Source: Huintestinicola sp.
GTDB taxonomy: Bacteria > Bacillota > Clostridia > Oscillospirales > Ruminococcaceae
Length of the DNA: 64,000 bases
Reading direction: 5' to 3'
NCBI GenBank assembly: GCA_051882495.1
Contig: JBJERX010000108.1
Span: 16,291 to 80,290 of the forward strand
Shown here: positions 48,565 through 64,000 of the stretch, piece after piece
How positions within the stretch are numbered: position 1 is the stretch's first letter
How the letters are laid out: each line of letters starts with the position of its first letter
Position numbers and translations under genes: made by a program
Notes under the pieces: generated by a model
What the model was told of the DNA's origin: nothing
Databases searched by the model: none
The model's input: only the letters and a program-made list of their open reading frames with translations

Positions 48565-49344
48565 ATGAAAGCAGTTCTTTTAGCAGGAGGACTGGGAACA
48601 AGAATTTCCGAGGAATCCCAGTACAAGCCCAAGCCTATGATCGAAATAGGCGGAATGCCTATTCTGTGGCATATAATGAAGGAATATTCCTATTACGGAT
48701 TTAACGATTTTATCATCTGTGCAGGCTATAAGCAGCACGTTATAAAGGAATGGTTCGCAGATTATTTCCTGCATACCTCCGATATAACCTTCGATTTTAC
48801 CGAAGGCAACAAAATGGTTATACATAACATGAAGGCAGAGCCCTGGAGGGTCACAGTGGTGGATACGGGGCTTAATACAATGACAGGCGGCAGAATAAAG
48901 CGTATCCGGCCCTATATCGGCAATGAGACATTTATGATGACATATGGCGACGGCGTATGCGATGTGAATATTACCGAGCTGCTTGAGTTCCATAAGAGCC
49001 ATGGAAAGACTGCAACACTGACCGCTGTAATGCTTGAGCAGCAGAAGGGCGTACTGGATATCGGCGGCGACAATGCTGTCCACTCCTTCAGAGAAAAGGC
49101 TGCGGGAGACGGTGCACCTATTAATGCGGGATATATGGTGCTTGAGCCTGAGATCTTCGATTATATTGACGGTGATGATACCGTATTTGAGAAAAAGCCT
49201 CTGGAAACACTGGCGGCAAAGGGAGAGCTTATGAGCTATATGCACAAGGGCTTCTGGCAGTGCATGGATACAAAGCGTGAAATGGATATGCTTGAAAAGC
49301 TCCTTGCCACAGGACAGGCACCCTGGAAAAAATGGGAGGACTAA
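48565..49344 (+). CDS. rfbF: Glucose-1-phosphate cytidylyltransferase (DdhA)
   Basis: LAGGLGTRISEE..KPKPMIEIG, DTGLNTMTGGRIKR, TYGDG, GFWQCMDT. Confidence 0.95.
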   Translation: MKAVLLAGGLGTRISEESQYKPKPMIEIGGMPILWHIMKEYSYYGFNDFIICAGYKQHVIKEWFADYFLHTSDITFDFTEGNKMVIHNMKAEPWRVTVVDTGLNTMTGGRIKRIRPYIGNETFMMTYGDGVCDVNITELLEFHKSHGKTATLTAVMLEQQKGVLDIGGDNAVHSFREKAAGDGAPINAGYMVLEPEIFDYIDGDDTVFEKKPLETLAAKGELMSYMHKGFWQCMDTKREMDMLEKLLATGQAPWKKWED

Positions 49345-49349
49345 GCTCA

Positions 49350-50420
49350 ATGGACCTTAAAAGCTTTTACAAAGGGAAAAAAGTCCTCATAACGGGGCAT
49401 ACAGGCTTCAAAGGCTCATGGCTTTGCAGGATACTTGCAGGCTTCGGAGCGGAGGTGACAGGCTATTCTCTTACGCCCCCAACATCCCCCTCGCTGTTTG
49501 AGCTTGCGGAGGTTGAAAAGGACATCACTCACATTGTGGGGGATATCAGAGACCTCGACAGCCTTAAAAAAGTATTTGAGGAAAAGCGTCCCGAGATAGT
49601 TCTTCATCTTGCGGCTCAGCCTATTGTAAGGGAGAGCTATAGGAATCCCCTTGATACCTATGAGATAAATGTTATGGGCACAGCCAATATCCTGGAGTGC
49701 GTCCGTCTTACCGACTGCGTCAAGTCCTTTCTGAATGTTACTACCGATAAGGTTTATCTCAATCGTGAGTGGGAATGGGGCTACCGTGAGACAGACGAGC
49801 TGGATGGCTATGACCCTTATTCCAACTCCAAATCCTGTTCCGAGCTGGTGACACATTCATATAAAAACAGCTTTTTCTCCGACGGCAGAACAGCCATTTC
49901 CACCGCCCGTGCGGGAAATGTTATCGGCGGCGGAGATTTTGCTTCTGACAGAATAATCCCGGACTGCATCAGAGCAGCAGAAAAGCATGAGGATATAATC
50001 GTCAGAAATCCTTTTTCAACACGTCCCTATCAGCACGTTCTGGAGCCGCTTTTTGCATATCTGCTCATTGCTGCAAAGCAGTATGAGGATATCTCCTATG
50101 AGGGATATTACAATGTTGGTCCCGATGATAACTGCTGCTTTGAGACAGGCAGGATAGTTGATCTCTTTACTGAAAAATGGGGAGATGGTATCAAGTGGGT
50201 CAATAAGTATGACGGCGGACCTCACGAAGCTAATTTCCTGAAGCTTGACTGTGCTAAGATAAAGACTAAATTCGGCTGGAGACCTACCTGGGAGCTTCCC
50301 GAGACTATGGATAAAATAGTTGAGTGGACAAAGCTTTATATCAGCGGGGCATCTGCCATTGAGCTGAAAGAATGTATGGACAGGCAGATAAATGAATTTA
50401 TGGAACAGATGAATAAATAA
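49350..50420 (+). CDS. rfbG: CDP-glucose 4,6-dehydratase (DdhB)
   Basis: ITGHTGFKGSWL, HLAAQP, TTDKVY, DPYSNSK, RAGNVIGGGD, RPYQHVLEPL, HEANFLKLD. Confidence 0.95.
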   Translation: MDLKSFYKGKKVLITGHTGFKGSWLCRILAGFGAEVTGYSLTPPTSPSLFELAEVEKDITHIVGDIRDLDSLKKVFEEKRPEIVLHLAAQPIVRESYRNPLDTYEINVMGTANILECVRLTDCVKSFLNVTTDKVYLNREWEWGYRETDELDGYDPYSNSKSCSELVTHSYKNSFFSDGRTAISTARAGNVIGGGDFASDRIIPDCIRAAEKHEDIIVRNPFSTRPYQHVLEPLFAYLLIAAKQYEDISYEGYYNVGPDDNCCFETGRIVDLFTEKWGDGIKWVNKYDGGPHEANFLKLDCAKIKTKFGWRPTWELPETMDKIVEWTKLYISGASAIELKECMDRQINEFMEQMNK

Positions 50421-50441
50421 TTTTGAAAGGAATCGTATAAA

Positions 50442-51788
50442 ATGAGCAAGTGGAATACCGAAGCAGAGGCAAGAGATCAGATAAAGGCTCTTGTTGCTGA
50501 TTATTACCATAACTTTAAGGAAAATAAGGCTCCCTTTGAAAAGGGCAACAGAATAAGCTATGCATCAAGAGTATTTGATGAAAAGGAAATGTGTGCACTT
50601 ACCGATGCTATGCTTGATTTTTGGCTTACCACAGGCAGATTTGCCGATGAATTTGAGAAGGAGTTTGCAAAGTGGATAGGCGTAAAGCATGCACATCTTG
50701 TAAACAGCGGTTCTTCCGCAAATCTTATTGCATTTATGGCACTTACCGCACCTGAGCTTGGCGACAGACAGATAAAGAGAGGGGACGAGGTCATTACTGT
50801 AGCCTGCGGCTTCCCCACAACTGTCACACCTATTCTTCAGTACGGGGCAGTGCCTGTTTTCGTTGATGTGACCGTTCCTCAGTATAACATTGATGTGAAC
50901 GCACTTGAAGCGGCTCTCAGCGATAAGACCAAGGCTGTTATGATAGCACATACGCTGGGAAATCCCTTTGACCTTAAGGCTGTAAAGGCATTCTGTGATA
51001 AGCATGGTCTCTGGCTTGTAGAGGATAACTGCGACGCTTTGGGCACACAGTACACCATTGACGGTGAGACACGCTTCACAGGCACATGGGGAGATATAGG
51101 CACATCAAGCTTCTATCCTCCTCACCACATGACTATGGGCGAGGGCGGCTGTGTTTATACCAATGACCCCAAGCTTTCAAGACTTATCCTTTCTTATCGT
51201 GACTGGGGAAGAGACTGCATCTGTCCTTCGGGCAGGGACAATTTCTGTAACCATCGTTTTGACGGACAGTTCGGTGAGCTTCCTCAGGGCTACGACCACA
51301 AGTATGTTTACAGCCATTTCGGATATAATCTTAAGGTTACGGATATGCAGGCAGCTGTAGGCTGCGAGCAGCTGAAAAAGTTCCCTTCATTTATTGAGAG
51401 ACGCCGTCACAACCATGACAGGCTCCTTAAGGCTCTTGAATGCGTAAGCGACAAGCTTATCCTTCCCGTTCCCGCCGAGAACAGCCGTCCTTCCTGGTTT
51501 GGCTTCCTCATTTCCGTTAAGCCCGAAAGCGGCAGGACAAGAAACGAGGTCACAAAATATATTGAATCCCACAATATTCAGACAAGACTGCTTTTCAGCG
51601 GCAACCTTATCAAGCACCCCTGCTTCGACCAGATCAGAGGCACAGACGCTTACAGGATTGCAGGCAGCCTTGAAAATACCGATTTTATTATGAATAACAC
51701 CTTCTGGGTGGGGGTTTATCCCGGTATGACAGATGAGATGATAGATTATATGGCTGAAGTTATTATTGAGGCTGTGAAGTATGAATGA
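50442..51788 (+). CDS. rfbH: CDP-4-keto-6-deoxyglucose 3-dehydrase E1 (DdhC)
   Basis: SFYPPHHMTMGEGG has His in place of the aminotransferase Lys; GRDCICPSGRDNFC..YDH fits the E1 Fe-S ligand pattern. Confidence 0.92.
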   Translation: MSKWNTEAEARDQIKALVADYYHNFKENKAPFEKGNRISYASRVFDEKEMCALTDAMLDFWLTTGRFADEFEKEFAKWIGVKHAHLVNSGSSANLIAFMALTAPELGDRQIKRGDEVITVACGFPTTVTPILQYGAVPVFVDVTVPQYNIDVNALEAALSDKTKAVMIAHTLGNPFDLKAVKAFCDKHGLWLVEDNCDALGTQYTIDGETRFTGTWGDIGTSSFYPPHHMTMGEGGCVYTNDPKLSRLILSYRDWGRDCICPSGRDNFCNHRFDGQFGELPQGYDHKYVYSHFGYNLKVTDMQAAVGCEQLKKFPSFIERRRHNHDRLLKALECVSDKLILPVPAENSRPSWFGFLISVKPESGRTRNEVTKYIESHNIQTRLLFSGNLIKHPCFDQIRGTDAYRIAGSLENTDFIMNNTFWVGVYPGMTDEMIDYMAEVIIEAVKYE

Positions 51789-52767
51789 TACAAAGAAAAC
51801 CGTAAGCGTGGTAATTCCTACCTATAATGAAATAGAAAATGTTCAGGCAGTTGCAGATGCGGTAGTGAAAGAGTTAACGGATAATCTGCCCGAGTATAAC
51901 TATGAGCTGCTGTTTATCGATAACAAGTCCACTGATGGTACAAGAGATGTTATCAGAAAGCTCTGTTCCGAAAATCCGTGTATCAAGGCTATTTTTAATA
52001 TAAAGAATTTTGGACCCGACAATTCTCCGTATTATGGTCTGCTTCAGGCAACGGGTGACTGTGTGATCCCATTTAGCGCTGATTTTCAGGATCCTATTGA
52101 AATGATACACAAAATGGTTCGAGAATGGGAAAAAGGAAATAAGGTAATAACAGCAATAAAGCAAACAAGCCGTGAAAACAAGCTGCTGCGTTTCTTAAGA
52201 ACAATTTATTATAAGTTGATCCGCAAAATATCAAGCACCGAGATAATAGAACATTTTACAGGTTTCGGACTTTATGATCGTTCATTTGTGGATATACTTC
52301 GTTCGATAAATGATCCAGTCCCGTTCTTCAGAGGGGTTGTGGCAGAGTTCAGCGACAGTCGGTTGGAAATGCCCTATGAGCAGCAGAAAAGAAGAGCGGG
52401 GAAGAGTCATATAAGATTTTTCACTCTATACGATATGGTAATGAGGAGCATAACCTCGTATACAAGGATAGGTTTGCGCATAGCTACGCTTATTGGATTC
52501 GGAACTGCAGCAATTTCGCTGCTGGTTGCTGTTATTTACTTTATATATAAGCTTTTAAATTGGGATAGCTTCAATACGGGTATGGCTCCTGTTGTTATTG
52601 GCATATTCTTCTTCAGTTCAATACAGCTTGCATTTCTCGGACTGATGGGAGAATATGTTATGAGTATAAATAACAGGATAATTAACAGACCATTGGTAAT
52701 AGAAGCTGAAAGAATAAATTTTGTCAGCTCCGAAATAACAACCTTATCGGATAAAGACAGCTTATGA
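51781..52767 (+). CDS. GT2 polyprenyl-phosphate glycosyltransferase (GtrB-like)
   Basis: VVIPTYNE, FIDNKSTDGT, SADFQDP, RRAGKS, two C-terminal TMs. Confidence 0.85.
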   Translation: MNDTKKTVSVVIPTYNEIENVQAVADAVVKELTDNLPEYNYELLFIDNKSTDGTRDVIRKLCSENPCIKAIFNIKNFGPDNSPYYGLLQATGDCVIPFSADFQDPIEMIHKMVREWEKGNKVITAIKQTSRENKLLRFLRTIYYKLIRKISSTEIIEHFTGFGLYDRSFVDILRSINDPVPFFRGVVAEFSDSRLEMPYEQQKRRAGKSHIRFFTLYDMVMRSITSYTRIGLRIATLIGFGTAAISLLVAVIYFIYKLLNWDSFNTGMAPVVIGIFFFSSIQLAFLGLMGEYVMSINNRIINRPLVIEAERINFVSSEITTLSDKDSL

Positions 52768-52800
52768 TAATATATGATATGTCACGGAGGCATAAAATTG

Positions 52801-53859
52801 ATGAATGCACAAATAAAGCTGCTTGACTGTACTCTCAGAGATGGCGGATTTGCTCTTGAAGATGCGGAAAAAAATAATATTTCTGCAGGCACATTTTCAG
52901 AGGATGATAGGAATCATATAGCACAGAAGATGACAGAAAGCGGTGCGGAAATAATCGAGCTTGGAGCTATTGAGGTCACTCCTTCCGACAGAAAAGGCTT
53001 TGCCATTTACCCGGATATCGAAAGCATCTCTGCTGTGATGCCTCCGAAAAAGAACAGCAGCCAGCTTTATGCAGGCTTTTTCAGGGGGCCCGACAGACCT
53101 CTTGAGGAAATCCCGCCCTATTCCGAGAATATGCTGGAAGCTGTAAGAGTTTGTCTCAGATATTCCGAGCTGAGGAAATCCCTTGATTACTGTAAGGGAC
53201 TATGCGAAAAAGGATATAAAGTATTTATTCAACCAATGGTCACTGCACGCTATACGGATGAGGAGCTTTCTCTTCTTACCCAAGAGGCAAACTCTATGGG
53301 AGCATATGCTCTGTACTTTGTGGACAGCTACGGCTTTATGACCGAGGAGGATGTGGCGTATTATTTCGGACGATTTGACCGTGAACTTGCCCCCTCAATC
53401 AAAATAGGCTTTCACGCCCACAATAATATGGAAATGGCACTGCCCAATGTATTGTCCTTTATAAAAAATTGCGGAAGCAGAGAAATAATTATTGATTCCT
53501 GTGCCGACGGTATGGGACAAGGCACGGGCAATCTCCAGACCGAGATAATTATGAATTATCTCAACAGGATGTATGGCAAGAACTACTGCCTAGATAAGGT
53601 CTTCGATGTATGTGAGACTATAGGGAAATTTAATTCAAACAGGCTTTGGGGTTACCTGCCTGCAAGATTTATTCCTGCTGTGAATGGCACCGCCTACAAA
53701 TATGCCTTGGCATTAAAAAATAAGTATGGAATGAGCCTCGCAGAAATACACAGCATTCTCAGCAATATCTCTGAAGAGCTGAGATACAGATATACTCCCG
53801 AAAATGCAGAAAAGCTTGTTATTGACAGTGGGATCTATGTAAATAAGGATGGTAAATAA
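52801..53859 (+). CDS. DRE-TIM (HMGL-like) aldolase, 4-hydroxy-2-oxovalerate aldolase-like
   Basis: LLDCTLRDGG, YFVDSYG, GFHAHNN metal site, GMGQGTGN. Confidence 0.8.
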   Translation: MNAQIKLLDCTLRDGGFALEDAEKNNISAGTFSEDDRNHIAQKMTESGAEIIELGAIEVTPSDRKGFAIYPDIESISAVMPPKKNSSQLYAGFFRGPDRPLEEIPPYSENMLEAVRVCLRYSELRKSLDYCKGLCEKGYKVFIQPMVTARYTDEELSLLTQEANSMGAYALYFVDSYGFMTEEDVAYYFGRFDRELAPSIKIGFHAHNNMEMALPNVLSFIKNCGSREIIIDSCADGMGQGTGNLQTEIIMNYLNRMYGKNYCLDKVFDVCETIGKFNSNRLWGYLPARFIPAVNGTAYKYALALKNKYGMSLAEIHSILSNISEELRYRYTPENAEKLVIDSGIYVNKDGK

Positions 53860-53861
53860 GT

Positions 53862-55529
53862 ATGACTGTTGCCGAATATATCGTTAGCGAGATGATAAAA
53901 TGCGGTGTAACAGATGCCTTTGGTATACCGGGTGGAGTTATATTAAAGCTGCTTGCTGCAATGAAAAAAGCAGAACCGGTTCTAACTCCTCATCTGACAT
54001 ATCACGAGCAGACAGCAGGCTTTGCGGCTCTCGGTTATGCTCAGTCAAGCGGAAGGTTAGGTGTTGCTTATTCAACAAGAGGACCTGGTATTACCAATAT
54101 GATTACCTGTATTGCTGAAGCATATCAGGAATCGCTGCCCGTGCTGTTTATCACAGCTCATGGCAGGCGGATGGAGAATAATGTAAGATTTAACGATAAT
54201 CAGGAGCTTGAAGTAGTCAGCTGCATTTCAAAATTCACCAAATTTGCAGCTAATGCCGATACTCCCCACGATGCAGCTAAAATGCTCAAAAAAGCAATTA
54301 ACATTGCGGTGAGTGGAAGAAAGGGACCTGTTTTTCTTGATTTTGCGGCATCCGTTTTCGATAATGAGATTTCTGACGTACCCGAAGAGCATACGGTTTT
54401 GGAGGATAATAGCTCTGTTTCAAAAGCTGCAGATAATGCGACGAAGTTGCTTTCCTCTGCAAAGCGTCCGATATTGCTTATTGGTGACGGACTTAGATAT
54501 TATTCAAAGGACAAACTTAAGAAAATTGCAGAAACACTTAAGATCCCCGTGCTTTCAAGCAGAGGTTCTCAGGATCTTTTGGGAGGCTCGGAGTATTATT
54601 TCGGGTATGTGGGCAGCCACGGTGTAAGATACAGCAACTTTATCCTTTCAAAGGCAGACCTTATCATTGCTGTGGGAAACAGAATGGCATTCCCTCTAAA
54701 CTCGGCAAGCTTTTCTCCTGTTATCAATAATGCAATCATATTCAGAGTGGATATTGATGAAAATGAGCTGAGCCGTCATATTCCTAATGAATATGCTTTT
54801 GCTTGTGACGGCGGAATGTTTCTTGAACTGCTTATGGGGAAGTATCATTTTGAACAAGGCACCGAAGGCTGGCTTGACGTTTGTCGATGCCTTAAAAGAG
54901 AGCTTATTGATGAGGACTGCAATGAAACAGTAAGAAGACTGTCATCATTCATGTCTGCACAGTCTGCCGGAAAGCATTATGTCTGTGATGTTGGAAATAA
55001 TGAATTCCTGTTTTCAAGGGCATATGAGTACATTGGCTCAGAAGATAGTATATGCTGCTCAAAATCCTTCGGTACCTTAGGTTCTTCTATAGGACGTGCT
55101 ATTGGTGTATATTATGCATCCGGCGGAGAAGTTATCTGTGTATGCGGAGATCAGGGCTTTCAGTATAATTCACAGGATCTGCATTATATTTCTCAATGGA
55201 AGCTTCCAATCAGGATAGTTTTACTGAACAATTCCCGCTCGGGAATGATAGCAGATCACGAAAAGAATGTGCTGGGTGATATGAGAATTCATATTGATGA
55301 AGGATCGGGCTACAAAACTCCTGATTTTGCCAAGGTTGCTCAATGCTACGGTATAGAGTATACATCAGATCAGGATACTGCCTGTATGGATAATAATGAA
55401 CCTTTGCTTTATGAGATAAAGTCTGACGAGTGCGGTATCCTTTCACCTTCTTTACCAAAAGGAAATCCCTGTCAGGATATGTTCCCTCTTCTTGACAGAA
55501 ATAAATATGAGTATCTTGATAAACTTTGA
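53862..55529 (+). CDS. Acetolactate-synthase-like ThDP enzyme (YerE-like carboligase)
   Basis: FGIPGG, HEQTAGFAA, RGPGITN, GRKGPVFLD, ThDP motif CGDQG..LLNN; glycan-locus context. Confidence 0.8.
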   Translation: MTVAEYIVSEMIKCGVTDAFGIPGGVILKLLAAMKKAEPVLTPHLTYHEQTAGFAALGYAQSSGRLGVAYSTRGPGITNMITCIAEAYQESLPVLFITAHGRRMENNVRFNDNQELEVVSCISKFTKFAANADTPHDAAKMLKKAINIAVSGRKGPVFLDFAASVFDNEISDVPEEHTVLEDNSSVSKAADNATKLLSSAKRPILLIGDGLRYYSKDKLKKIAETLKIPVLSSRGSQDLLGGSEYYFGYVGSHGVRYSNFILSKADLIIAVGNRMAFPLNSASFSPVINNAIIFRVDIDENELSRHIPNEYAFACDGGMFLELLMGKYHFEQGTEGWLDVCRCLKRELIDEDCNETVRRLSSFMSAQSAGKHYVCDVGNNEFLFSRAYEYIGSEDSICCSKSFGTLGSSIGRAIGVYYASGGEVICVCGDQGFQYNSQDLHYISQWKLPIRIVLLNNSRSGMIADHEKNVLGDMRIHIDEGSGYKTPDFAKVAQCYGIEYTSDQDTACMDNNEPLLYEIKSDECGILSPSLPKGNPCQDMFPLLDRNKYEYLDKL

Positions 55530-55543
55530 TCGGAGGAACGTTT

Positions 55544-57301
55544 ATGTATATCGAAAATATCAGCAGTCCAGCAGATTTGAAAAAGCTATCAATGGATGAA
55601 TGTGAAGCTCTTGCTTCCGAAATTCGTTCAATGCTTATAAAAAAAGCTTCTATTAATGGCGGACATCTTGCTTCTAATCTGGGTATGGTCGAAGCAGCTA
55701 TAGCTCTGCACTATGTATTTGACTCACCTTCCGATAAGATCATATTTGACGTTTCTCACCAGTGCTATACCCATAAGATACTTACCGGCAGAAAAGCTGC
55801 ATTTACTGATGTGGATAAATACTCCTCGGTAAACGGCTATACAAATCCTGATGAAAGTGAGCACGATCTGTTTAAGGTAGGTCATACTGCAACATCCATA
55901 AGCCTTGCCTGTGGTCTTGCAAAGGCAAGAAACATCAGAGGCGGTAAAGAAAGCATTATTGCAGTTATCGGAGATGGTTCGCTAAGCGGAGGAGAAGCTT
56001 TTGAAGGGCTTGATTTCGGCGGTTCTGATATTGAGGGTAATTTTATTGTGCTTTTCAATGACAATCAGATGTCTATTGCGGAAAATCACGGCGGCATCTA
56101 CAATAATCTTGCTCTGCTCAGAAATACTGAGGGAAAAGCTGAAAATAATCTTTTTAAGGCCTTTGGATATGACTATATTTTTGTTAAGGATGGCAACAGT
56201 ATAGTGCAGATTGTGAATGCACTCAGAGAGGCAAAAGAGCTTGACCACCCTGTCGTTGTTCATATATGCACGGTAAAAGGAAAAGGCTATGACTTTGCCG
56301 AAAGCCACAAGGAAAGCACTCATTGGGTAAAACCCTTTAATATTGACAGCGGACTTGAAAAAAATCCTTTTAACGGAGAACGCTACGACAGGCTCATGCG
56401 AGATCACCTAATCGAAAAAATGGAAGAGGATCCCAATGTAGTTACAATGATAGCTGCTGTCCCCGATTCGCTCAATTTTACTGCCGAACACAGAAAAAAG
56501 GCAGGGAAGCAGTTTGTTGATGTAGGTATTGCAGAGGAGCATGCTGTTTCTATGGCGGCTGGTCTTGCAAAGAATGGCTGCAAGCCCGTTTTTGCCACAA
56601 TGTCTACATTCTTCCAGAGGACATATGACCAGATATCTCAGGAACTATGTATCAACAATACGCCTGTCACTCTTCTTGTAATAAATGCTTCTGTTTATTC
56701 AGTAAATGATATTACTCATATTGGAATATTCGATATTCCAATGATGTCAAATATACCGAATCTTGTGTATCTTGCTCCCACAAATAAACAGGAATATCTT
56801 GCCATGACGGACTGGAGTATAGATCAGCAGCAATATCCGGTAGCAATAAGAGCACCCAGAAACGGTGTGTATAATGCAAAGGACGATGTTGACACCGATT
56901 ACAGCTGTCTTAACAAATATAAGGTCGTTACAAAAGGTGAAAAGGTTGCTGTCCTTGCATTAGGAAGCTTTTTCCAGTTGGGCGAGGAGATTTTGAAAAA
57001 AATTTCAGACAGCCTTGGTTTTGTACCTACACTGATAAATCCGAGATATATCACGGGTATTGATAACGAGCTTCTTGAAAGACTGAAAAAGGATCATGAT
57101 GTCGTTATTACTCTGGAGGACGGCGTTCTTGACGGCGGATGGGGTCAGAAGATAGCATCATTCTATGGTAATTCTGAAATGAAGGTACTGAATTATGGAC
57201 TGAAAAAAGAATTCCTCGACAGATATGACTTGAACAAGGTCATGACCGAGAATCGCCTCATACCTGAGCTTATCCTTGAAGATATCAGGGGAATTCTTTG
57301 A
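55544..57301 (+). CDS. DXS-like ThDP carboligase 1 (short type, 585 aa)
   Basis: GGHLASNLG, FDVSHQ, GDGSLSGG..NDN, IAEEHA, TFFQRTYDQ; GGAGG RBS before ATG 55544. Confidence 0.85.
   Translation: MYIENISSPADLKKLSMDECEALASEIRSMLIKKASINGGHLASNLGMVEAAIALHYVFDSPSDKIIFDVSHQCYTHKILTGRKAAFTDVDKYSSVNGYTNPDESEHDLFKVGHTATSISLACGLAKARNIRGGKESIIAVIGDGSLSGGEAFEGLDFGGSDIEGNFIVLFNDNQMSIAENHGGIYNNLALLRNTEGKAENNLFKAFGYDYIFVKDGNSIVQIVNALREAKELDHPVVVHICTVKGKGYDFAESHKESTHWVKPFNIDSGLEKNPFNGERYDRLMRDHLIEKMEEDPNVVTMIAAVPDSLNFTAEHRKKAGKQFVDVGIAEEHAVSMAAGLAKNGCKPVFATMSTFFQRTYDQISQELCINNTPVTLLVINASVYSVNDITHIGIFDIPMMSNIPNLVYLAPTNKQEYLAMTDWSIDQQQYPVAIRAPRNGVYNAKDDVDTDYSCLNKYKVVTKGEKVAVLALGSFFQLGEEILKKISDSLGFVPTLINPRYITGIDNELLERLKKDHDVVITLEDGVLDGGWGQKIASFYGNSEMKVLNYGLKKEFLDRYDLNKVMTENRLIPELILEDIRGIL
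57068..57295 (+). repeat. 228-bp direct repeat, copy 1 (3' end of DXS-like 1)
   Basis: 227 of 228 bases identical to 60137-60364 (offset 3,069 bp), compared by eye. Confidence 0.95.
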
Positions 57302-57337
57302 TTATAATCCTATTGATAAAGGAGTAACTGCATAGAA

Positions 57338-58333
57338 ATGAAAGATATAACTATATTAGTTACAGGTGCCACGGGTTTATTGGGCTATAATCTTGTTAAT
57401 CAATTGATTGACAGGGACGTAAAAGTAATTGCATTGGGAAGAAGCGAAGAAAAGCTTCGTAACTGCTTTAACGAACATATCGGAAAAGATTATTTTTCAT
57501 ATATAGCGTCTGATATTTCCGGGCTAAAGTTACCTATAGATGAACCAATCGATTGTATTTTTCACGCAGCAGGATCGATTGAATTGAAAACAATAGTCGA
57601 GCAACCAATGAATATTGTAAATCCTAACAGTTTAGGCACTATTTCCTGCTTGGAATTCTTAAAAGAACAAGAAATAAGGAGCGGTAAAAGAGGAAGACTC
57701 ATTTACTTCTCCAGTGAAGCAGTATATGGTAAAAGCAGCAATGATAGACGGGTCACAGAGGAGGATACGGAAATATCCGATTCGCTTACAGTCCAAAGAT
57801 CACCCTACTCACATTCCAAAAGGATCGGAGAAGTAATTGTAAACGGCTATCACAAGCAATATAACACCGATTCATTGAGTGTGAGACTTTCCTGGGTATA
57901 TGGAAATGCAAAAATCAGACCCAAGCAAGCACTGTTTGATTTTATTCAAACCGCTCTTGAGGGAAATGATATAATAATCAGAAACGCCAACACTCCCAGA
58001 CGAGATAATATCTGCATGAAGGATGCTATGGAAGCATTGATCTGTATAGCTCAGAAGGGAACGGCAGGGGAGGCTTATAACATTTCTTCAGGCGGAGACT
58101 GCGGCAATTTCGCGTCGGCTGCCGAGATCGCAGAGATCGTTGCTGATATTGTAAACAGCAAACAGTATTCACCCAAGCCTGTACATGTGCTTTACGAAAA
58201 TGAATTATCCAAAAGAGAAGGCGGGATTATTATGGACAATTCCAAGCTTAAAATGCTGGGATGGGACATAACAACTGGACTTCGTGATGGAATTGAAAAG
58301 TTAATAGATGAGGTAAGAAACAATGTATATTGA
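57338..58333 (+). CDS. Extended SDR (NAD(P)-dependent NDP-sugar reductase/epimerase)
   Basis: VTGATGLLG, SSEAVYG, YSHSK catalytic YxxxK, RLSWVYG. Confidence 0.85.
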   Translation: MKDITILVTGATGLLGYNLVNQLIDRDVKVIALGRSEEKLRNCFNEHIGKDYFSYIASDISGLKLPIDEPIDCIFHAAGSIELKTIVEQPMNIVNPNSLGTISCLEFLKEQEIRSGKRGRLIYFSSEAVYGKSSNDRRVTEEDTEISDSLTVQRSPYSHSKRIGEVIVNGYHKQYNTDSLSVRLSWVYGNAKIRPKQALFDFIQTALEGNDIIIRNANTPRRDNICMKDAMEALICIAQKGTAGEAYNISSGGDCGNFASAAEIAEIVADIVNSKQYSPKPVHVLYENELSKREGGIIMDNSKLKMLGWDITTGLRDGIEKLIDEVRNNVY

Positions 58334-60110
58334 AAAGATCAACAGTCCCGCGGACTTAAAAAAATTATCAATTGATGAGTGTAAGGTATTAGCAGATGAG
58401 ATGAGGCAGACACTGCTAAATAAACTAAGCGTTACAGGCGGACATCTGGCACCGAATCTTGGTGTCGTTGAGGCAGTGATAGCATATCATTATGTTTTCG
58501 ATTCTCCCTATGATAAAATCGTTTTCGATGTATCCCATCAATGCTATCCTCATAAGATGCTCACAGGAAGAATGGAAGCTTATACAAAGCCTGAGAAATA
58601 TTCATCTGTAACAGGATTTACTGAAATTACTGAAAGCGAACACGACTTTTTTACTGTAGGTCATACTTCAACCTCAATCAGTCTCGCCAGCGGTATGGCT
58701 AAGGCACGAGATCTGAAGGGTGACAAAGAGAATATAATTGCATTTATCGGAGACGGCTCATTAGGCGGTGGTGAAGCATTTGAGGGACTTGATTATGTGG
58801 CCTCTGAAATAAATAGCAATTTTATTATCATATTAAATGATAATGGAATTTCCATAGCTGAAAATGTAGGTGGGCTGTATAAGAACTTAAAAGAACTCCG
58901 CGATACAAACGGTACTTCTCAAAACAATATATTTAAGGCTCTGGGACTTGATTATAGGTTTGTAGAAAATGGAAATGATATTCCTTCTTTAGTAGAAACA
59001 TTGCAGGAAGTTAAGGATATTGATCATCCGGTAGTAGTGCATATTTGTACAGTTAAGGGTTATGGATATACATATTCGGAAAGTAACCCTGAGATGACTC
59101 ATTGTCTTAATAAACCTTTCGATATTGAAAAGGGTCCTGATTTTACTCCATTTAAGTTTGTTGAAGGAAAGAATGAAAGATATGATTATATAATCAGAGA
59201 ACACCTTATTGACCGAATGAAAAAAGATCCTCTTATTACCACAATTATGGCATCAACAATGTACTGCCTTTCTTTTACGAAAGATAAGCGGGAAGAAGCC
59301 GGAAATCAGTTTGTTGATGTAGGGGCGGTAGAGGAACATGGTATTGCGATGACTGCCGGCGTAGCACGAAATGGAGGCAAACCTGTATTCGTAACTGCAT
59401 CTACTTTCTATATGCGAACATATGACCAGATATCTCAGGAATTATGTATAAATAAATGCCCTGCTACATTAATTGTAGTCAATGCTTCCGTGTATGCAGT
59501 TGATGATGTTACACATACTGAAATATTTGATATCCCTATGATGTCAAATATACCGAATCTGGTATATCTTGCTCCCACAAACAAGCAGGAATATTTAGCA
59601 ATGTTGGATTGGAGTATAGATCAGACAGAGTATCCTGTTGCAATTCGTCAGCCTAGAAATGGTGTTTTCTATGCTAAGGGTGAAGTGGATAAGGATTATA
59701 GCGATCTAAATAAGTATAAGATTGAAATATGCGGCAGCAAGGTTGCAATTATTGCCCTGGGAGAATTCTATCAGTTGGGAGAATCAGTTGTCGATTTATT
59801 AGAGAAAAGAACAGGAATAAAAGCTACACTAATAAATCCCAGATATATAACCGGAATTGACGAAGCACTGCTGAGAAGTCTTCCTGAAACGCATAGTTTG
59901 ATAGTAACACTTGAAAGCGGCTCACTGAACGGAGGATTTGGAGAAAAAATTGCATCTTTCTATGGACCTGATAACAGAGTAAAAGTTCTTAACAGAGGTT
60001 TGAAAAAGGAATTCCTTGATACGGTTCATATGAGTACTGCGAAATTACTGGAAGATTTGCGCCTGACAGACGAGTTACTATGTGATGATATTGAAAGCTG
60101 TCTGAATTGA
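58323..60110 (+). CDS. DXS-like ThDP carboligase 2 (595 aa)
   Basis: GGHLAPNLG, DVSHQ, GDGSLGGG..NDN, AVEEHG, TFYMRTYDQ; clear paralog of DXS-like 1. Confidence 0.85.
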   Translation: MYIEKINSPADLKKLSIDECKVLADEMRQTLLNKLSVTGGHLAPNLGVVEAVIAYHYVFDSPYDKIVFDVSHQCYPHKMLTGRMEAYTKPEKYSSVTGFTEITESEHDFFTVGHTSTSISLASGMAKARDLKGDKENIIAFIGDGSLGGGEAFEGLDYVASEINSNFIIILNDNGISIAENVGGLYKNLKELRDTNGTSQNNIFKALGLDYRFVENGNDIPSLVETLQEVKDIDHPVVVHICTVKGYGYTYSESNPEMTHCLNKPFDIEKGPDFTPFKFVEGKNERYDYIIREHLIDRMKKDPLITTIMASTMYCLSFTKDKREEAGNQFVDVGAVEEHGIAMTAGVARNGGKPVFVTASTFYMRTYDQISQELCINKCPATLIVVNASVYAVDDVTHTEIFDIPMMSNIPNLVYLAPTNKQEYLAMLDWSIDQTEYPVAIRQPRNGVFYAKGEVDKDYSDLNKYKIEICGSKVAIIALGEFYQLGESVVDLLEKRTGIKATLINPRYITGIDEALLRSLPETHSLIVTLESGSLNGGFGEKIASFYGPDNRVKVLNRGLKKEFLDTVHMSTAKLLEDLRLTDELLCDDIESCLN

Positions 60111-60609: not shown

Positions 60610-61086
60610 ATGCAATCAATAAAGCAGTTTTTAAAATTCGGCATAGTCGGATTATCCAATACTCTTATTTCGCAGATCATATACATGATAGCAGTCTCCC
60701 TTGGTGCTCACTATCTTGCAGCCAGCGTGATCGCTTTCATTATCAGTGTGCTGAATGCATTTTTCTGGCAGAATAAATTTGTTTTCAAGGAGGAAGAGGA
60801 CAAGGAGAAAAGAGTATGGTGGAAGGTTCTTCTGAAAACCTATGCAGCTTACGCCTTTACGGGTCTGCTGCTGAATAATCTTCTCCTGATAATGTGGATA
60901 GACCTTATCAGGATCGAAAGCTTCACTCCTGCACTCACTGATCTTGTGAACAGCTTCGGTATCAATATAAGCAATCATGATCTGGCTGTTGATATAGCTC
61001 CTCTTCTTAATATTGTTGTGAATGTGCCCATTAACTTTGTGATTAATAAATTCTGGGCTTACAGGCAAAAAAAGGTTGCATCTTAA
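60610..61086 (+). CDS. GtrA-family lipid-linked sugar translocase
   Basis: QFLKFGIVGLSNTLI, NAFFWQNKFVF, INFVINKFWAY; four TMs. Confidence 0.9.
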   Translation: MQSIKQFLKFGIVGLSNTLISQIIYMIAVSLGAHYLAASVIAFIISVLNAFFWQNKFVFKEEEDKEKRVWWKVLLKTYAAYAFTGLLLNNLLLIMWIDLIRIESFTPALTDLVNSFGINISNHDLAVDIAPLLNIVVNVPINFVINKFWAYRQKKVAS

Positions 61087-61282: not shown

Positions 61283-63775
61283 ATGTTTTCGGATCTGGAT
61301 AAAAGCTCGGCGTATATCCTTCGCAGATCTTTTAAGGAAACATCTCTGGATGTATGCGATGAAGATACTTTGAAATATTCCGCTCTGTATGAGGATCTGC
61401 TGAGAAAAAAGGACAGCATTGACAAACAGGGATATATTGCACCCGCATTGCTTCCTATAGGAAAAGATGGTGTGGTCAATATTCGTCTGCTGCTTCCTTT
61501 TGAAGGAGTTCATTTTATAAATATGGCATATATGGTCATTCTTGGCAGAGTACCCGAAAAAGCGGCTATGGACTCATTGCAGAAAGCATTGGCTGCAAAC
61601 AGCAGCAAGGAAGCTAAGATAAAGATCCTGAGAACAATAGGATCTTCCAATGAAGCTAAGTCCCGGGGAGCGATCCTTACGGGTTATGACAAAGTAAAAA
61701 CTTCCCAGCTTTACAGATATCAGGATATGGAGTTCATAGAGAATGCATATATAAGGATCCTTCTGAGAAGGCCCGATGACAAGGGCAGAAAACGCTTTCT
61801 TTCCATGCTCAGATCACCCGAATACTCTCCTGCCGAGATATTATACACGCTCCGTCATTCCCCCGAAGGTGAAAAGCATGGCGTTGAGATCGTAGGTCTG
61901 GAAAATGACTACCGCAGGAGAATGAAACGTAAAAAGATTATGAGTATACCTGTGATAGGCAGGTGTATAAGATATATCTCACGGCTCCTCGGTGTAAACA
62001 GGAGAATACTTGCTCTGAAAAATGAGATCAGTTATTTGTGGGATAAGCTGTATAGCAGCAGATCGGCTCTTGATGACAGGATCAATTCGTTAACTCTGCA
62101 GCTTTCCGATAGGATAGACGCAGGAAACAGAAAAACTGCAGCACTTGAAAGACAGATCAGGGAACAGACAGGCAGAATAAACAAGCTTGCCAAGCAGTAT
62201 GAGACGGAAAACGATAGACTTGCGGAGCTTGCCGAGCGGTATGAGACGGAAAATGACAGACTTGCGGAGCTTGCCGAGGAGTATGAGACTGCCAACAGCA
62301 GGCTTACTGAGCTTGCCGAGCGGTATGAAAATGCCAACAGTAGATACAAGGAGCAGTATAAGTCTGTAGAAAGCCGTTTAACGGAGCTAGATGACTTTAC
62401 CCATCAGACAGACAGCATTATTGGTGAACTGAATAAGACACAGGATGAACATTATAAACTTCTGAACGAGCAGTCTGATGTCATCACCCGTCTGTCTGAG
62501 GAATCAGACAGGAGAAGCACTTTCTACGAGACACGCTTCGGAGAGCTTGATGGCTATACCCACCAGATCGGGGATAATGTCAATGCTCTGAACAGCTCAA
62601 TGGAGCGTTATGGCAATACACTGAACGATCAGTCCGCTGCAATCACACGCCTGTCTGAGGAATTAGACAGGAGAAGCAGTTCTTATGAGAGCAGCTTCAG
62701 AGAGCTTGACGGCTATACCCACCAGATCGAGGACAATGTCAGTGATCTGAACAGTGTATCAGAGAGTTATGGTAATTTGCTGAATGAACAGTCCGATGCC
62801 ATCACCCGTCTGTCGCAGGAATTAGACAAGAGAAGCACATCCTATGAGAGCAGCTTCGGAGAGCTTGACGGCTATACTCATCAGATAGGCGGAAACGTTG
62901 CTGATATCAATAAAGCACTGTCCAACTATGACAACATTCTGTCGGAATATGTTAATGAGGATAAAAAGACCATTCAGATGCTCCTTGCAGAGATATTCAA
63001 GCTGAAAACAGAAATTAAGGCTCTGAAAAACGGCGGGGTAAGAAACGCTGAAGCAGCTCCAAGTCAGAGTGAGGAGACTGCTCCTTCCGCTGTACCCGCT
63101 TCCGATGTGTATAGTGCAATAGAATACTTTGATTTTGAAAATCATTTCAGAGGAAGCAGAGAGCACGTCAAGTCTGTTCAGAAGATCTATCTCCCATATT
63201 TTGAGGGCAGGAAGAATGTGCTTGACCTTGGCTGCGGAAGAGGTGAATTCACCGAGCTGCTCAGGGACAATAATGTGGGCGTTACAGGCGTGGATATGTA
63301 TGAGCCTTATGTTGAATATATGAGATCTCTGGAGCTGCCTGTGGTTCTTGATGATGCAGTTGCTTATCTGAGTCGTCAGGAAAGCACTGACGGAATCTTC
63401 ATGGGACAGGTGGTAGAGCATTTGTCCGTTGATCAGATCGTGACAATATGCAATATGGCGTATGAAAAGCTTGAGGAAGGCAGCTGCCTTATTATGGAAA
63501 CTCCTAATCCAAAATCTCTCGCGATTTTTACAGAGTGCTTTTATATGGATCCTTCCCATCAGAAGCCTGTGCATCCCTTTACACTGAAATATATTGCTGA
63601 AAAGGCAGGCTTCACAAAGGTGGATATCCTTTATACAGACAGCAGCAGACTGCCATTCAGTATACCTAAGATCAAAGAAGACGAGCCTGATTTTGATAAG
63701 TTCAATGAGGCTATGCAGAGAGTGTCCGAGCTTTTATATGGCAGTCAGGATTACGCTGTGATCGCAAGAAAGTAA
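61283..63775 (+). CDS. DUF4214-like x2 / repeat coiled coil / class I SAM methyltransferase (WbdD/WsaE-like glycan chain terminator)
   Basis: FINMAYMVILGRVP and FIENAYIRILLRRPD repeats; long heptad-rich linker; FENHFRGSRE, VLDLGCGRGEF, QVVEHL, ETPNP, FYMDPSHQKP, QDYAVIARK. Confidence 0.75.
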   Translation: MFSDLDKSSAYILRRSFKETSLDVCDEDTLKYSALYEDLLRKKDSIDKQGYIAPALLPIGKDGVVNIRLLLPFEGVHFINMAYMVILGRVPEKAAMDSLQKALAANSSKEAKIKILRTIGSSNEAKSRGAILTGYDKVKTSQLYRYQDMEFIENAYIRILLRRPDDKGRKRFLSMLRSPEYSPAEILYTLRHSPEGEKHGVEIVGLENDYRRRMKRKKIMSIPVIGRCIRYISRLLGVNRRILALKNEISYLWDKLYSSRSALDDRINSLTLQLSDRIDAGNRKTAALERQIREQTGRINKLAKQYETENDRLAELAERYETENDRLAELAEEYETANSRLTELAERYENANSRYKEQYKSVESRLTELDDFTHQTDSIIGELNKTQDEHYKLLNEQSDVITRLSEESDRRSTFYETRFGELDGYTHQIGDNVNALNSSMERYGNTLNDQSAAITRLSEELDRRSSSYESSFRELDGYTHQIEDNVSDLNSVSESYGNLLNEQSDAITRLSQELDKRSTSYESSFGELDGYTHQIGGNVADINKALSNYDNILSEYVNEDKKTIQMLLAEIFKLKTEIKALKNGGVRNAEAAPSQSEETAPSAVPASDVYSAIEYFDFENHFRGSREHVKSVQKIYLPYFEGRKNVLDLGCGRGEFTELLRDNNVGVTGVDMYEPYVEYMRSLELPVVLDDAVAYLSRQESTDGIFMGQVVEHLSVDQIVTICNMAYEKLEEGSCLIMETPNPKSLAIFTECFYMDPSHQKPVHPFTLKYIAEKAGFTKVDILYTDSSRLPFSIPKIKEDEPDFDKFNEAMQRVSELLYGSQDYAVIARK
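62184..62351 (+). repeat. Four 42-bp (14-aa) coding tandem repeats
   Basis: Units start at 62184, 62226, 62268 and 62310 (agcttgcc..); consensus ELAERYETENDRLA. Confidence 0.9.
62384..62947 (+). repeat. About 3.5 copies of a 159-bp (53-aa) coding tandem repeat
   Basis: ELDGYTHQ-type unit starts at 62384, 62543, 62702 and 62861. Confidence 0.9.
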
Positions 63776-63788
63776 GGTGAGGGCTTGT

Positions 63789-64000
63789 ATGATTAATGTT
63801 GAAGAGATAAAAAATTCGTCTCCTGAGGAAAGAATTCTATGCGAGCTCATCGAGACCGATCTGATGGGAGTTATCCTTGATGAATGCTGCACGGAGGACG
63901 AGCTGGGCATGATAATAAACGCAGTACATCTCTATAATAGAGCCTGCGGCGGCAATATCAGGATATTTTCGGTCGGAAAGCATAACAATACGCCGTATAT
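63789..64000 (+). CDS. 5' part of a gene running off the window edge (product unknown)
   Basis: ATG 13 bp after the previous stop; open to the window end: MINVEEIKNSSPEERILCELIETDLMG.. Confidence 0.55.
   Translation, partial: MINVEEIKNSSPEERILCELIETDLMGVILDECCTEDELGMIINAVHLYNRACGGNIRIFSVGKHNNTPY

Follow-up and report, generated by a model that had tools for sequence, protein, structure and literature searches.

A repeat-built coiled-coil methyltransferase from a gut Clostridia genome as a candidate ruler for cell-wall glycan length

Comparison with described glycan-capping systems

To our knowledge, proof that a coiled coil sets polysaccharide length has come from only a few O-antigen systems of Gram-negative bacteria, in each case through engineered insertions or deletions. 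We describe here a gene for a putative ruler of this kind in a gut bacterium of the Clostridia. It occupies positions 61283-63775 (forward strand) of a 64,000-nucleotide stretch of a Huintestinicola genome (hereafter the window; C108:16291-80290 of a 2.93 Mb assembly in 148 contigs that is 96% complete), where the list of open reading frames (ORFs) and the translation give exactly one ORF of 830 amino acids (aa). The gene probably encodes a peripheral enzyme of the cytoplasmic membrane face, which is WbdD-like in action but of reversed polarity, and which caps and measures a glycan.

In WbdD (Escherichia coli O9a/O8; Klebsiella O3/O5), a catalytic head is carried on a long coiled coil with a membrane-associating amphipathic region, and the polymerase is encoded alongside. 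Insertions and truncations in the coil shift the modal chain length (PMC5082667). The 830-aa protein resembles WbdD in its predicted coiled coil between a catalytic head and a presumed membrane-associating amphipathic region, and in the polymerase encoded alongside, and its relatives are likewise encoded with wzm and with a Wzt bearing a cap-binding module. However, its foot is N-terminal and its methyltransferase C-terminal, which inverts the order of WbdD, and it has no kinase domain. The foot contains two DUF4214 units, and this genome lacks a Wzt with a carbohydrate-binding module (CBM). The coil also differs, being about 355 residues long with a predicted length of up to ~53 nm (~20 nm in WbdD), and consisting of recent tandem repeats that vary naturally in number.

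A coiled-coil protein with a distal terminating enzyme, together with a cap-reading Wzt CBM, has been described as the mark of capped, ruler-controlled glycans of the ATP-binding cassette (ABC) transporter-dependent pathway (PMC11231755). ORF6 of Klebsiella pneumoniae O7, ORF7 of O4 and WbbB of O12 belong to this pathway and hold their terminator distally on a coiled coil; the polymerase modules of such systems can be fused or separate (PMC11231755). Their terminators are N-terminal Kdo (3-deoxy-D-manno-oct-2-ulosonic acid)-transferases or methyltransferase-kinases, often with a glycosyltransferase (GT) fused at the C-terminus, whereas the protein described here has a C-terminal methyltransferase and no fused GT.

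In Gram-positive bacteria, a parallel is WsaE of Geobacillus stearothermophilus, in which an S-layer glycan exported by the ABC route is capped by 2-O-methylation (PMC2943079). WsaE has an N-terminal methyltransferase and two rhamnosyltransferase domains, and lacks both DUF4214 and a long repeat-built coil. We detected no homology between the two methyltransferases beyond the class I fold, and no GT2 fusion of the WsaE type in the 830-aa protein. The closest solved structure to the methyltransferase head is PDB 3DLI from Archaeoglobus fulgidus (35% identity when the folds are aligned). This 240-aa protein, a structural-genomics target without an assigned function, consists of the methyltransferase alone and has neither a coil nor DUF4214. 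The foot shares its Pfam domain with the secreted four-unit DUF4214 proteins of segmented filamentous bacteria and with Psh of Pseudomonas putida. Those proteins act outside the cell, whereas the present one has two units, no signal peptide and a requirement for cytoplasmic S-adenosylmethionine (SAM).

Domain organization and the repeat-built stalk

The initial annotation, made from the DNA alone, had proposed two DUF4214 units, a long helix built from repeats and a C-terminal SAM-dependent methyltransferase, and this layout was borne out by Pfam, Tandem Repeats Finder (TRF) and AlphaFold2 (AF2) (Table 1). The DUF4214 family (PF13946) matched two stretches with 35.5 bits against a gathering cut-off of 23.2, in agreement with a hidden Markov model (HMM) trained on the loci. 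The Methyltransf_23 model matched residues 637-780 with 44.8 bits (cut-off 27), and a PDB sequence search aligned 3DLI across residues 605-830 (E = 9e-47). A glycine-rich motif, VLDLGCGRGEF, and a DPSHxKPVHP motif are invariant in 50 members of the methyltransferase family; among the same 50 sequences, Asp648, Gly650, Gly652 and Glu655 are invariant and Asp671 nearly so. Because the SAM-binding residues are invariant, the head is counted as catalytically competent on the basis of its sequence. Pfam revealed neither a kinase nor a GT domain in the 830-aa protein. A signal peptide was not found in it, nor was a transmembrane segment predicted; the highest 19-residue Kyte-Doolittle mean (1.59) falls within the DUF4214 core.

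The full-length AF2 model was built as a monomer from a nine-sequence alignment, and its mean predicted local distance difference test (pLDDT) score was 57.7. The DUF4214 region (residues 61-215) was modelled with a pLDDT of about 80-85. Helices were predicted at residues 228-411, 422-556 and 561-582, with low-confidence pLDDT values of about 60-70. Residues 579-629 scored below 50 and were assigned no secondary structure; within them, residues 583-604 probably form a flexible linker between the stalk and the head. The methyltransferase domain itself was poorly modelled (pLDDT often below 50), and a fold search with the model gave no matches other than 3DLI and generic class I methyltransferases.

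The predicted helix contains two tandem arrays. TRF reported a 42-bp repeat with 3.5 copies at 62184-62328 and a 159-bp repeat with 2.7 copies at 62462-62886, both with 83% matches. The 14-aa units encoded by the first array are 50-86% identical to one another at the protein level and 67-90% at the DNA level. The 53-aa units of the second are 68-70% and 72-80% identical, respectively; three full units (residues 393-551) follow a degenerate partial copy about half as long (~363-392). The motif ELDGYTHQ occurs four times with a spacing of exactly 53 residues.

The proposal in the initial annotation that 14 residues correspond to two heptads, and 53 residues to six heptads plus one hendecad, is upheld because the heptad phase remains constant across the 14-aa array and advances by +4 once per 53-aa unit. 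The best phase runs 2, 6, 3, 0, 4, the exception being a brief 3-6-3 flicker near residues 483-490. Core-hydrophobic positions in residues 243-585 have their strongest period at 3.54 (53/15 = 3.533), with a power that none of 500 shuffles attained, although the 53-aa repeat structure itself inflates the power at harmonics of 53. As in WbdD, an extended coiled coil is thus predicted to separate the catalytic head from the presumed membrane-proximal foot. If straight, the helix of residues 228-582 would measure ~53 nm by length arithmetic, and each 14-aa and 53-aa unit would contribute ~2.1 nm and ~7.9 nm, respectively.

The stalk region also gave weak matches to models of SMC proteins, tropomyosin and myosin tails, which might suggest a cytoskeletal or SMC-like coiled-coil protein, with a methyltransferase for a protein or small-molecule substrate, that is unrelated to glycans. 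We rejected this reading: the scores fall well short of the family cut-offs and mirror no more than the composition of a coiled coil. Moreover, the gene lies within a glycan operon in every locus examined, and such a function is very improbable.

At the end of the stalk opposite the methyltransferase, between DUF4214 unit 2 and the long helix, a polybasic RRRMKRKK sequence is followed by IMSIPVIGRCIRYISRLLGVNRRI. This foot segment contains the protein-wide maximum of the hydrophobic moment (0.67, with a net charge of +5, in windows starting at residues 219-227), and its strongest amphipathic window covers residues 219-243. The segment is nearly invariant in the orthologues, in particular at Lys218, Met220, Ile222-Val224, Gly226, Arg227, Asn239, Arg241 and Ile242. 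Judging from its sequence, we infer that it serves as an in-plane membrane anchor. The protein would then be ordered as foot (two DUF4214 units and the amphipathic helix), stalk, flexible linker and methyltransferase head, the reverse of WbdD.

Eight homologues of 644-780 aa, which are 55-70% identical to the 830-aa protein, align with it end to end. Both ends are conserved, and the differences lie almost only in the number of repeat units. The orthologues contain 0-4 of the 14-aa units, and the ELDGYTHQ-type motif occurs 4, 3, 3, 3, 2, 2, 2, 2 and 1 times in the 830-aa protein (P0001) and its eight homologues, always 53 residues apart. The 830-aa protein has the longest stalk of its clade.

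A comparison of repeat numbers across strains, which the initial annotation had recommended, revealed that near-identical alleles differ by exact multiples of 42 or 159 bp; between alleles of 94-98% DNA identity, the differences amount to 42, 84 or 318 bp. Four alleles, each from a different metagenome sample, share 90-98% DNA identity and a common gene order. The genes of loci L108 and L109 share 97.6% identity and are separated by one 42-bp insertion or deletion (indel). The gene of P0005 differs from that of P0003 by two 42-bp indels and from that of P0002 by one, and the gene of P0006 is 318 bp (2 x 159) shorter than that of P0003. Comparison of these alleles shows that the repeat arrays underwent recent expansion and contraction with preservation of the predicted coiled-coil register. 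One gut-Clostridia clade appears to build a predicted ruler from tandem units, with alleles that differ by whole, register-preserving steps.

Free variation of repeat number among near-identical strains would also be expected of an unconstrained spacer. Accordingly, the protein might be an ordinary glycan methyltransferase acting on internal residues or on a sugar precursor, in which the helix only oligomerises or tethers the enzyme and the repeat variation is neutral noise of slippage or recombination that leaves chain length unaffected. Against this, all indels consist of whole units that keep the register, which suggests that the rod is under selection. If stalk length is indeed functional, the natural whole-unit alleles provide a ready-made series (644-830 aa) for the ruler principle in Gram-positive cell-wall glycans. 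The length of surface glycans in gut commensals likely affects phage adsorption and host recognition. A search of sequencing reads for strain variation returned only one weak run (5% of words, pig gut). The methyltransferase gene is patchily distributed, as variable surface-glycan genes usually are: it was matched in 3 of 121 genomes of the taxonomic family, and not in the sole other genome of the same genus that was sampled.

The methyltransferase family and the proposed capping mechanism

The initial annotation had linked the gene to an ABC-dependent glycan pathway. This linkage holds for most of the orthologous loci and for many loci of the wider family, whereas this genome has no such genes near the methyltransferase gene and comes close to refuting the proposal. 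Among eight orthologous loci, five (L003, L008, L009, L108 and L109) have wzm and a gene for a 431-439-aa Wzt with the Wzt_C domain directly upstream of the methyltransferase gene. In the sequence examined of L002 and L007, no wzm or wzt was found, as in the window.

The methyltransferase domain represents a family with 1,913 representatives in bacteria and archaea (E <= 1e-30, clustered at 50%), and DUF4214 was found in 23 of 50 long members. We collected 80 family loci from Bacillota, Acidobacteriota, Desulfobacterota, other bacterial lineages, and methanogenic and other archaea; in 11 of them the available upstream sequence is shorter than 3 kb. Of the 80 loci, 42 encode a CBM-bearing Wzt, which is directly upstream and on the same strand in 33. 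The N-terminal extensions of the family members are 38-656 aa long (median 215), and 67 of 79 exhibit a hydrophobic period of 3.4-3.7 residues. A very large uncharacterised methyltransferase family of bacteria and archaea shows the hallmarks of a ruler with inverted polarity.

Because the family matches the published hallmarks, namely a coiled-coil terminator together with a Wzt CBM, WbdD-like action is well supported for it by association. The 830-aa protein itself has its methyltransferase and its foot at opposite ends of the helix, and polymerising GTs are encoded alongside. In the proposed mechanism, the N-terminal foot would sit on the inner face of the membrane through its two DUF4214 units and the polybasic amphipathic helix, beside the GTs encoded by the downstream genes (a 173-aa half-GT-B protein, a GT4 and a GT-B). 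The long coiled coil would hold the C-terminal SAM methyltransferase tens of nanometres from the membrane. A lipid-linked cell-wall polysaccharide would grow from the membrane until its non-reducing end comes within reach of the methyltransferase and becomes O-methylated. This methyl cap would halt extension and, in most relatives, would be read by the CBM of the Wzt exporter. Unequal recombination would add or remove whole in-register units, so that the stalk changes in length with the coil unbroken. Membrane association, an oligomeric state of the coil, methylation of the terminal rather than internal residues, and control of chain length by stalk length are each presumed here.

Several observations weigh against a capping and measuring function. 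WbdD was detected neither among the PDB sequence matches (E <= 1) nor among the top 50 fold matches to the methyltransferase, and these sequence and model comparisons do not support membership of the 830-aa protein in the WbdD family. The family members identified include no biochemically characterised enzyme, and no Wzm or Wzt is encoded within 10 kb in 37 of the 80 family loci. Wzt_C is absent from this 96%-complete assembly according to Pfam, a Wzt protein query and a locus-trained HMM of the Wzt CBM (51 positives in the control set); it is also absent from genome G001, which carries the orthologue P0009 (locus L002). The only Wzm/Wzt pair of the present genome is encoded on contig C120, and its Wzt is a 264-aa protein without a CBM. 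The structural model is of low confidence and represents a monomer only. Each 53-aa unit contains glycines, and the predicted helix is broken at residues 412-421. Because of these glycines, the helix break and the monomeric state of the model, the stalk could be folded back rather than a straight rod.

The absence of a cap-reading Wzt from both genomes would suit an ordinary methyltransferase for internal residues or precursors. Terminator activity has been demonstrated for no family member, and the nearest structure, 3DLI, is unannotated, which would suit it as well. On the other side, the order wzm-wzt(CBM)-methyltransferase recurs in Bacillota, Acidobacteriota, Desulfobacterota and methanogenic archaea, and Wzt CBMs bind terminal caps (PMC11231755). 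Taking this recurrence together with the whole-unit indels described above, we regard the ordinary-methyltransferase explanation as unlikely.

No wzm or wzt gene was found on the contig within 45 kb upstream or 8.4 kb downstream of the methyltransferase gene. A 349-aa ABC ATPase on contig C91 was considered as a Wzt candidate and rejected as a generic ABC-2 exporter. The missing cap-reading Wzt is a real gap, for which there are three possible readings: an exporter without a CBM, a transporter in the unassembled part of the genome, or a cassette decoupled from export. Because the genome is without a cap-reading Wzt, export presumably occurs by the CBM-less Wzm/Wzt of C120 or by an unassembled transporter.

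The C120 pair belongs to a cluster (C120:56000-72000, locus L006) that also includes a GDP-mannose 4,6-dehydratase and a reductase (GDP-6-deoxyhexose genes), a 781-aa GT and a TagF-like glycerophosphotransferase. Next come genes for an acyltransferase and for a secreted, transglutaminase-like protein that carries the four-unit DUF4214 module. Along its entire length, the 781-aa GT shares 34% identity with the 809-aa GT encoded beside the methyltransferase in L003.

This relationship between the two GTs is one of several observations that would fit a decoupled remnant, in which a terminator-GT cassette has moved beside a branched-sugar operon without its transporter, and the cap is either ungated, with export through the C120 Wzm/Wzt, or served by a transporter in the unassembled ~4% of the genome. 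The GT4 encoded downstream of the methyltransferase shares 90% identity with its counterpart in L008, a locus that has wzm-wzt(CBM) ahead of the methyltransferase gene, and for this reason the transporter is the part that differs between the two loci. The transporter-less layout of L007 is the same as that of the window, and the contig ends 69 bp after its last gene. However, a decaying remnant would not be expected to have an intact reading frame, every catalytic motif and the longest stalk of its clade, as this gene does. Furthermore, since Wzt_C is absent from two independent genomes, an assembly gap is unlikely as a general explanation. We therefore consider a decoupled remnant improbable, and retain a capping and measuring enzyme as the probable function.

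The family also occurs in the archaeal loci L037, L041, L042, L047, L052, L053, L054, L064 and L072, usually immediately after wzt(CBM); the hosts include Methanoregula, Methanothrix, Methanoperedens, Bathyarchaeia and others. From this position of the archaeal genes, capped ABC-dependent assembly appears to reach archaeal surface glycans. A DNA search of complete E. coli genomes with an Enterobacteriaceae family member gave no match, and plasmid matches to the family are named only generically as 'class I SAM-dependent methyltransferase'.

The DUF4214 foot and the gene neighbourhood

In segmented filamentous bacteria, DUF4214 has been regarded as a domain that likely anchors proteins to the surface (PMC12780176, PMC3371716), and O-antigen binding has been reported for Psh, an RTX-DUF4214 protein of P. 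putida (preprint 10.64898/2026.09.02.748959). Among the papers searched, those mentioning DUF4214 draw no connection to chain terminators. In the present genome, at least eight large proteins combine an N-terminal signal peptide with a stereotyped module of four DUF4214 units at the very C-terminus (Table 1). This module resembles a cell-wall anchor, the role suggested for it in segmented filamentous bacteria. Similar four-unit proteins are encoded beside wzm-wzt-methyltransferase clusters in the Lachnospiraceae loci L026, L027 and L031. Its presence in the foot of the 830-aa protein connects the orphan domain DUF4214 not only with surface anchoring but also with the cytoplasmic assembly of glycans.

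The initial annotation had suggested that DUF4214 docks the polymerase or transporter. Locus L003, which has wzm-wzt(CBM) and an orthologue of the methyltransferase, also encodes a 172-aa 'foot-only' protein (L003:4921-5439) with one DUF4214 unit and a basic amphipathic tail but without a catalytic domain; Pfam support for the unit is weak (E = 0.008), and the locus-trained HMM gives 5e-14. Its gene is directly upstream of, and overlaps, the gene for the 809-aa GT, and docking at the polymerase is favoured to some degree by this arrangement. Binding to glycan or cell wall is a strong rival to docking because at least eight signal-peptide proteins end in the four-unit module. It is possible that the foot binds the glycan itself, and nearly as possible that it docks the polymerase.

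A broader and rather unlikely proposal is that DUF4214 is a module binding cell-wall glycan on both faces of the membrane. The foot would then grip the nascent chain, the ruler would span the distance from foot to capping head, and changes of whole units would quantise a strain-specific length. If true, the four-unit modules would anchor at least eight secreted proteins to the polymer outside the cell, and the ruler would also tune their display. The gain and loss of 14-aa (~2 nm) and 53-aa (~8 nm) units would then be a natural, evolvable counterpart of the engineered WbdD ruler experiment.

Table 1. Coordinates of the methyltransferase gene, its parts, adjacent genes and DUF4214 proteins of the same genome (window positions unless a contig, C, or locus, L, is given)
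Feature	Position	Strand	Description or basis
Whole gene, 830 aa	61283..63775	+	DUF4214 x2 / amphipathic helix / repeat-built coiled coil / class I SAM methyltransferase
DUF4214 unit 1, residues 75-136	61505..61690	+	Pfam PF13946; locus-trained HMM E = 6e-13
DUF4214 unit 2, residues 148-207	61724..61903	+	Best Pfam stretch 146-196; locus-trained HMM E = 4e-19
Polybasic RRRMKRKK and amphipathic helix, residues 209-243; presumed membrane-surface anchor	61907..62011	+	Hydrophobic moment; conservation
Helical spacer / predicted coiled coil, residues 228-582 (~355 aa)	61964..63028	+	AF2 helices; hydrophobic period 3.54
4 x 14-aa (42-bp) repeats, residues 302-357, type LAERYETENDRLAE	62186..62353	+	TRF; unit listing
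~3.5 x 53-aa (159-bp) repeats, residues 363-551, with ELDGYTHQIG motif and one 4-residue stutter per unit	62369..62935	+	TRF; unit listing
Low-complexity linker, residues 583-604	63029..63094	+	AF2; poor conservation in orthologue alignment
Class I SAM-dependent methyltransferase domain, residues 605-830	63095..63772	+	Pfam Methyltransf_23/25/11; PDB 3DLI
GtrA-like small membrane protein, directly upstream	60610..61086	+	Pfam GtrA_DPMS_TM, E = 2.6e-20
173-aa half-GT-B-like partner gene, start	63777..64000, runs to 64310 (L001:3068-3601)	+	Conservation; AF2 model
Four-unit DUF4214 proteins	C2:18207-21062, C59:23255-26455, C92:1-3349(-), C120:69668-71641		
Four-unit DUF4214 proteins, continued	C126:15385-17409(-), C139:27596-30358, C139:30562-32496, C139:32474-34981		
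178-aa fragment alongside the DUF4214 proteins	C139:27040-27576		

The genes upstream of the methyltransferase comprise rmlA, rmlB and then a CDP-3,6-dideoxyhexose branched-sugar operon (48565-60110) with RfbH (above the NCBIfam cut-off), an aldolase-like gene, a YerE-like thiamine diphosphate enzyme and two DXS-like paralogues. The operon appears to make a C-branched 3,6-dideoxyhexose. It also spans a gene for a GtrB/ArnC/PgfS-like GT2 at 51781-52767. No terminator-like site was found flanking the methyltransferase gene, including the gap between it and the GtrA gene.

The genes downstream (L001) encode, in order, the 173-aa protein, a GT4 (354 aa), a divergent GT-B (418 aa), an AlgX-like SGNH protein, an MBOAT protein and a GT-C (PMT_2), the last gene of the contig. 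The multi-domain GT that the initial annotation had expected here was not found; instead there are two single GT-B proteins and the 173-aa half-GT-B. The module of methyltransferase, 173-aa protein, GT4 and GT-B is conserved, with identities of 64-69%, 90% and 68% for the three partners. The 173-aa protein, which is 64-69% identical in five loci, is always encoded directly after the methyltransferase. It has no Pfam or NCBIfam match, and its AF2 model (pLDDT 68) resembles a single Rossmann half of GT-B enzymes or UDP-GlcNAc 2-epimerases. The protein may act as an adaptor or as one subunit of a split GT.

The AlgX-like SGNH protein has Ig-like domains (669 aa) and adjoins the MBOAT protein (459 aa; L001:5918-9307, C108:82917-86306), and this pair is also present in L002. 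The two are probably an extracytoplasmic O-acylation pair for the glycan of the methyltransferase locus. The GT-C, the GtrB-like GT2 and GtrA look like a three-component set that adds the branched dideoxy sugar to a glycan outside the cell. The GT-C membrane protein (L001:9338-11392, C108:86337-88391) itself ends in one DUF4214 unit, and orthologous loci carry DUF6311-DUF4214, YfhO or DUF7024 proteins in its place.

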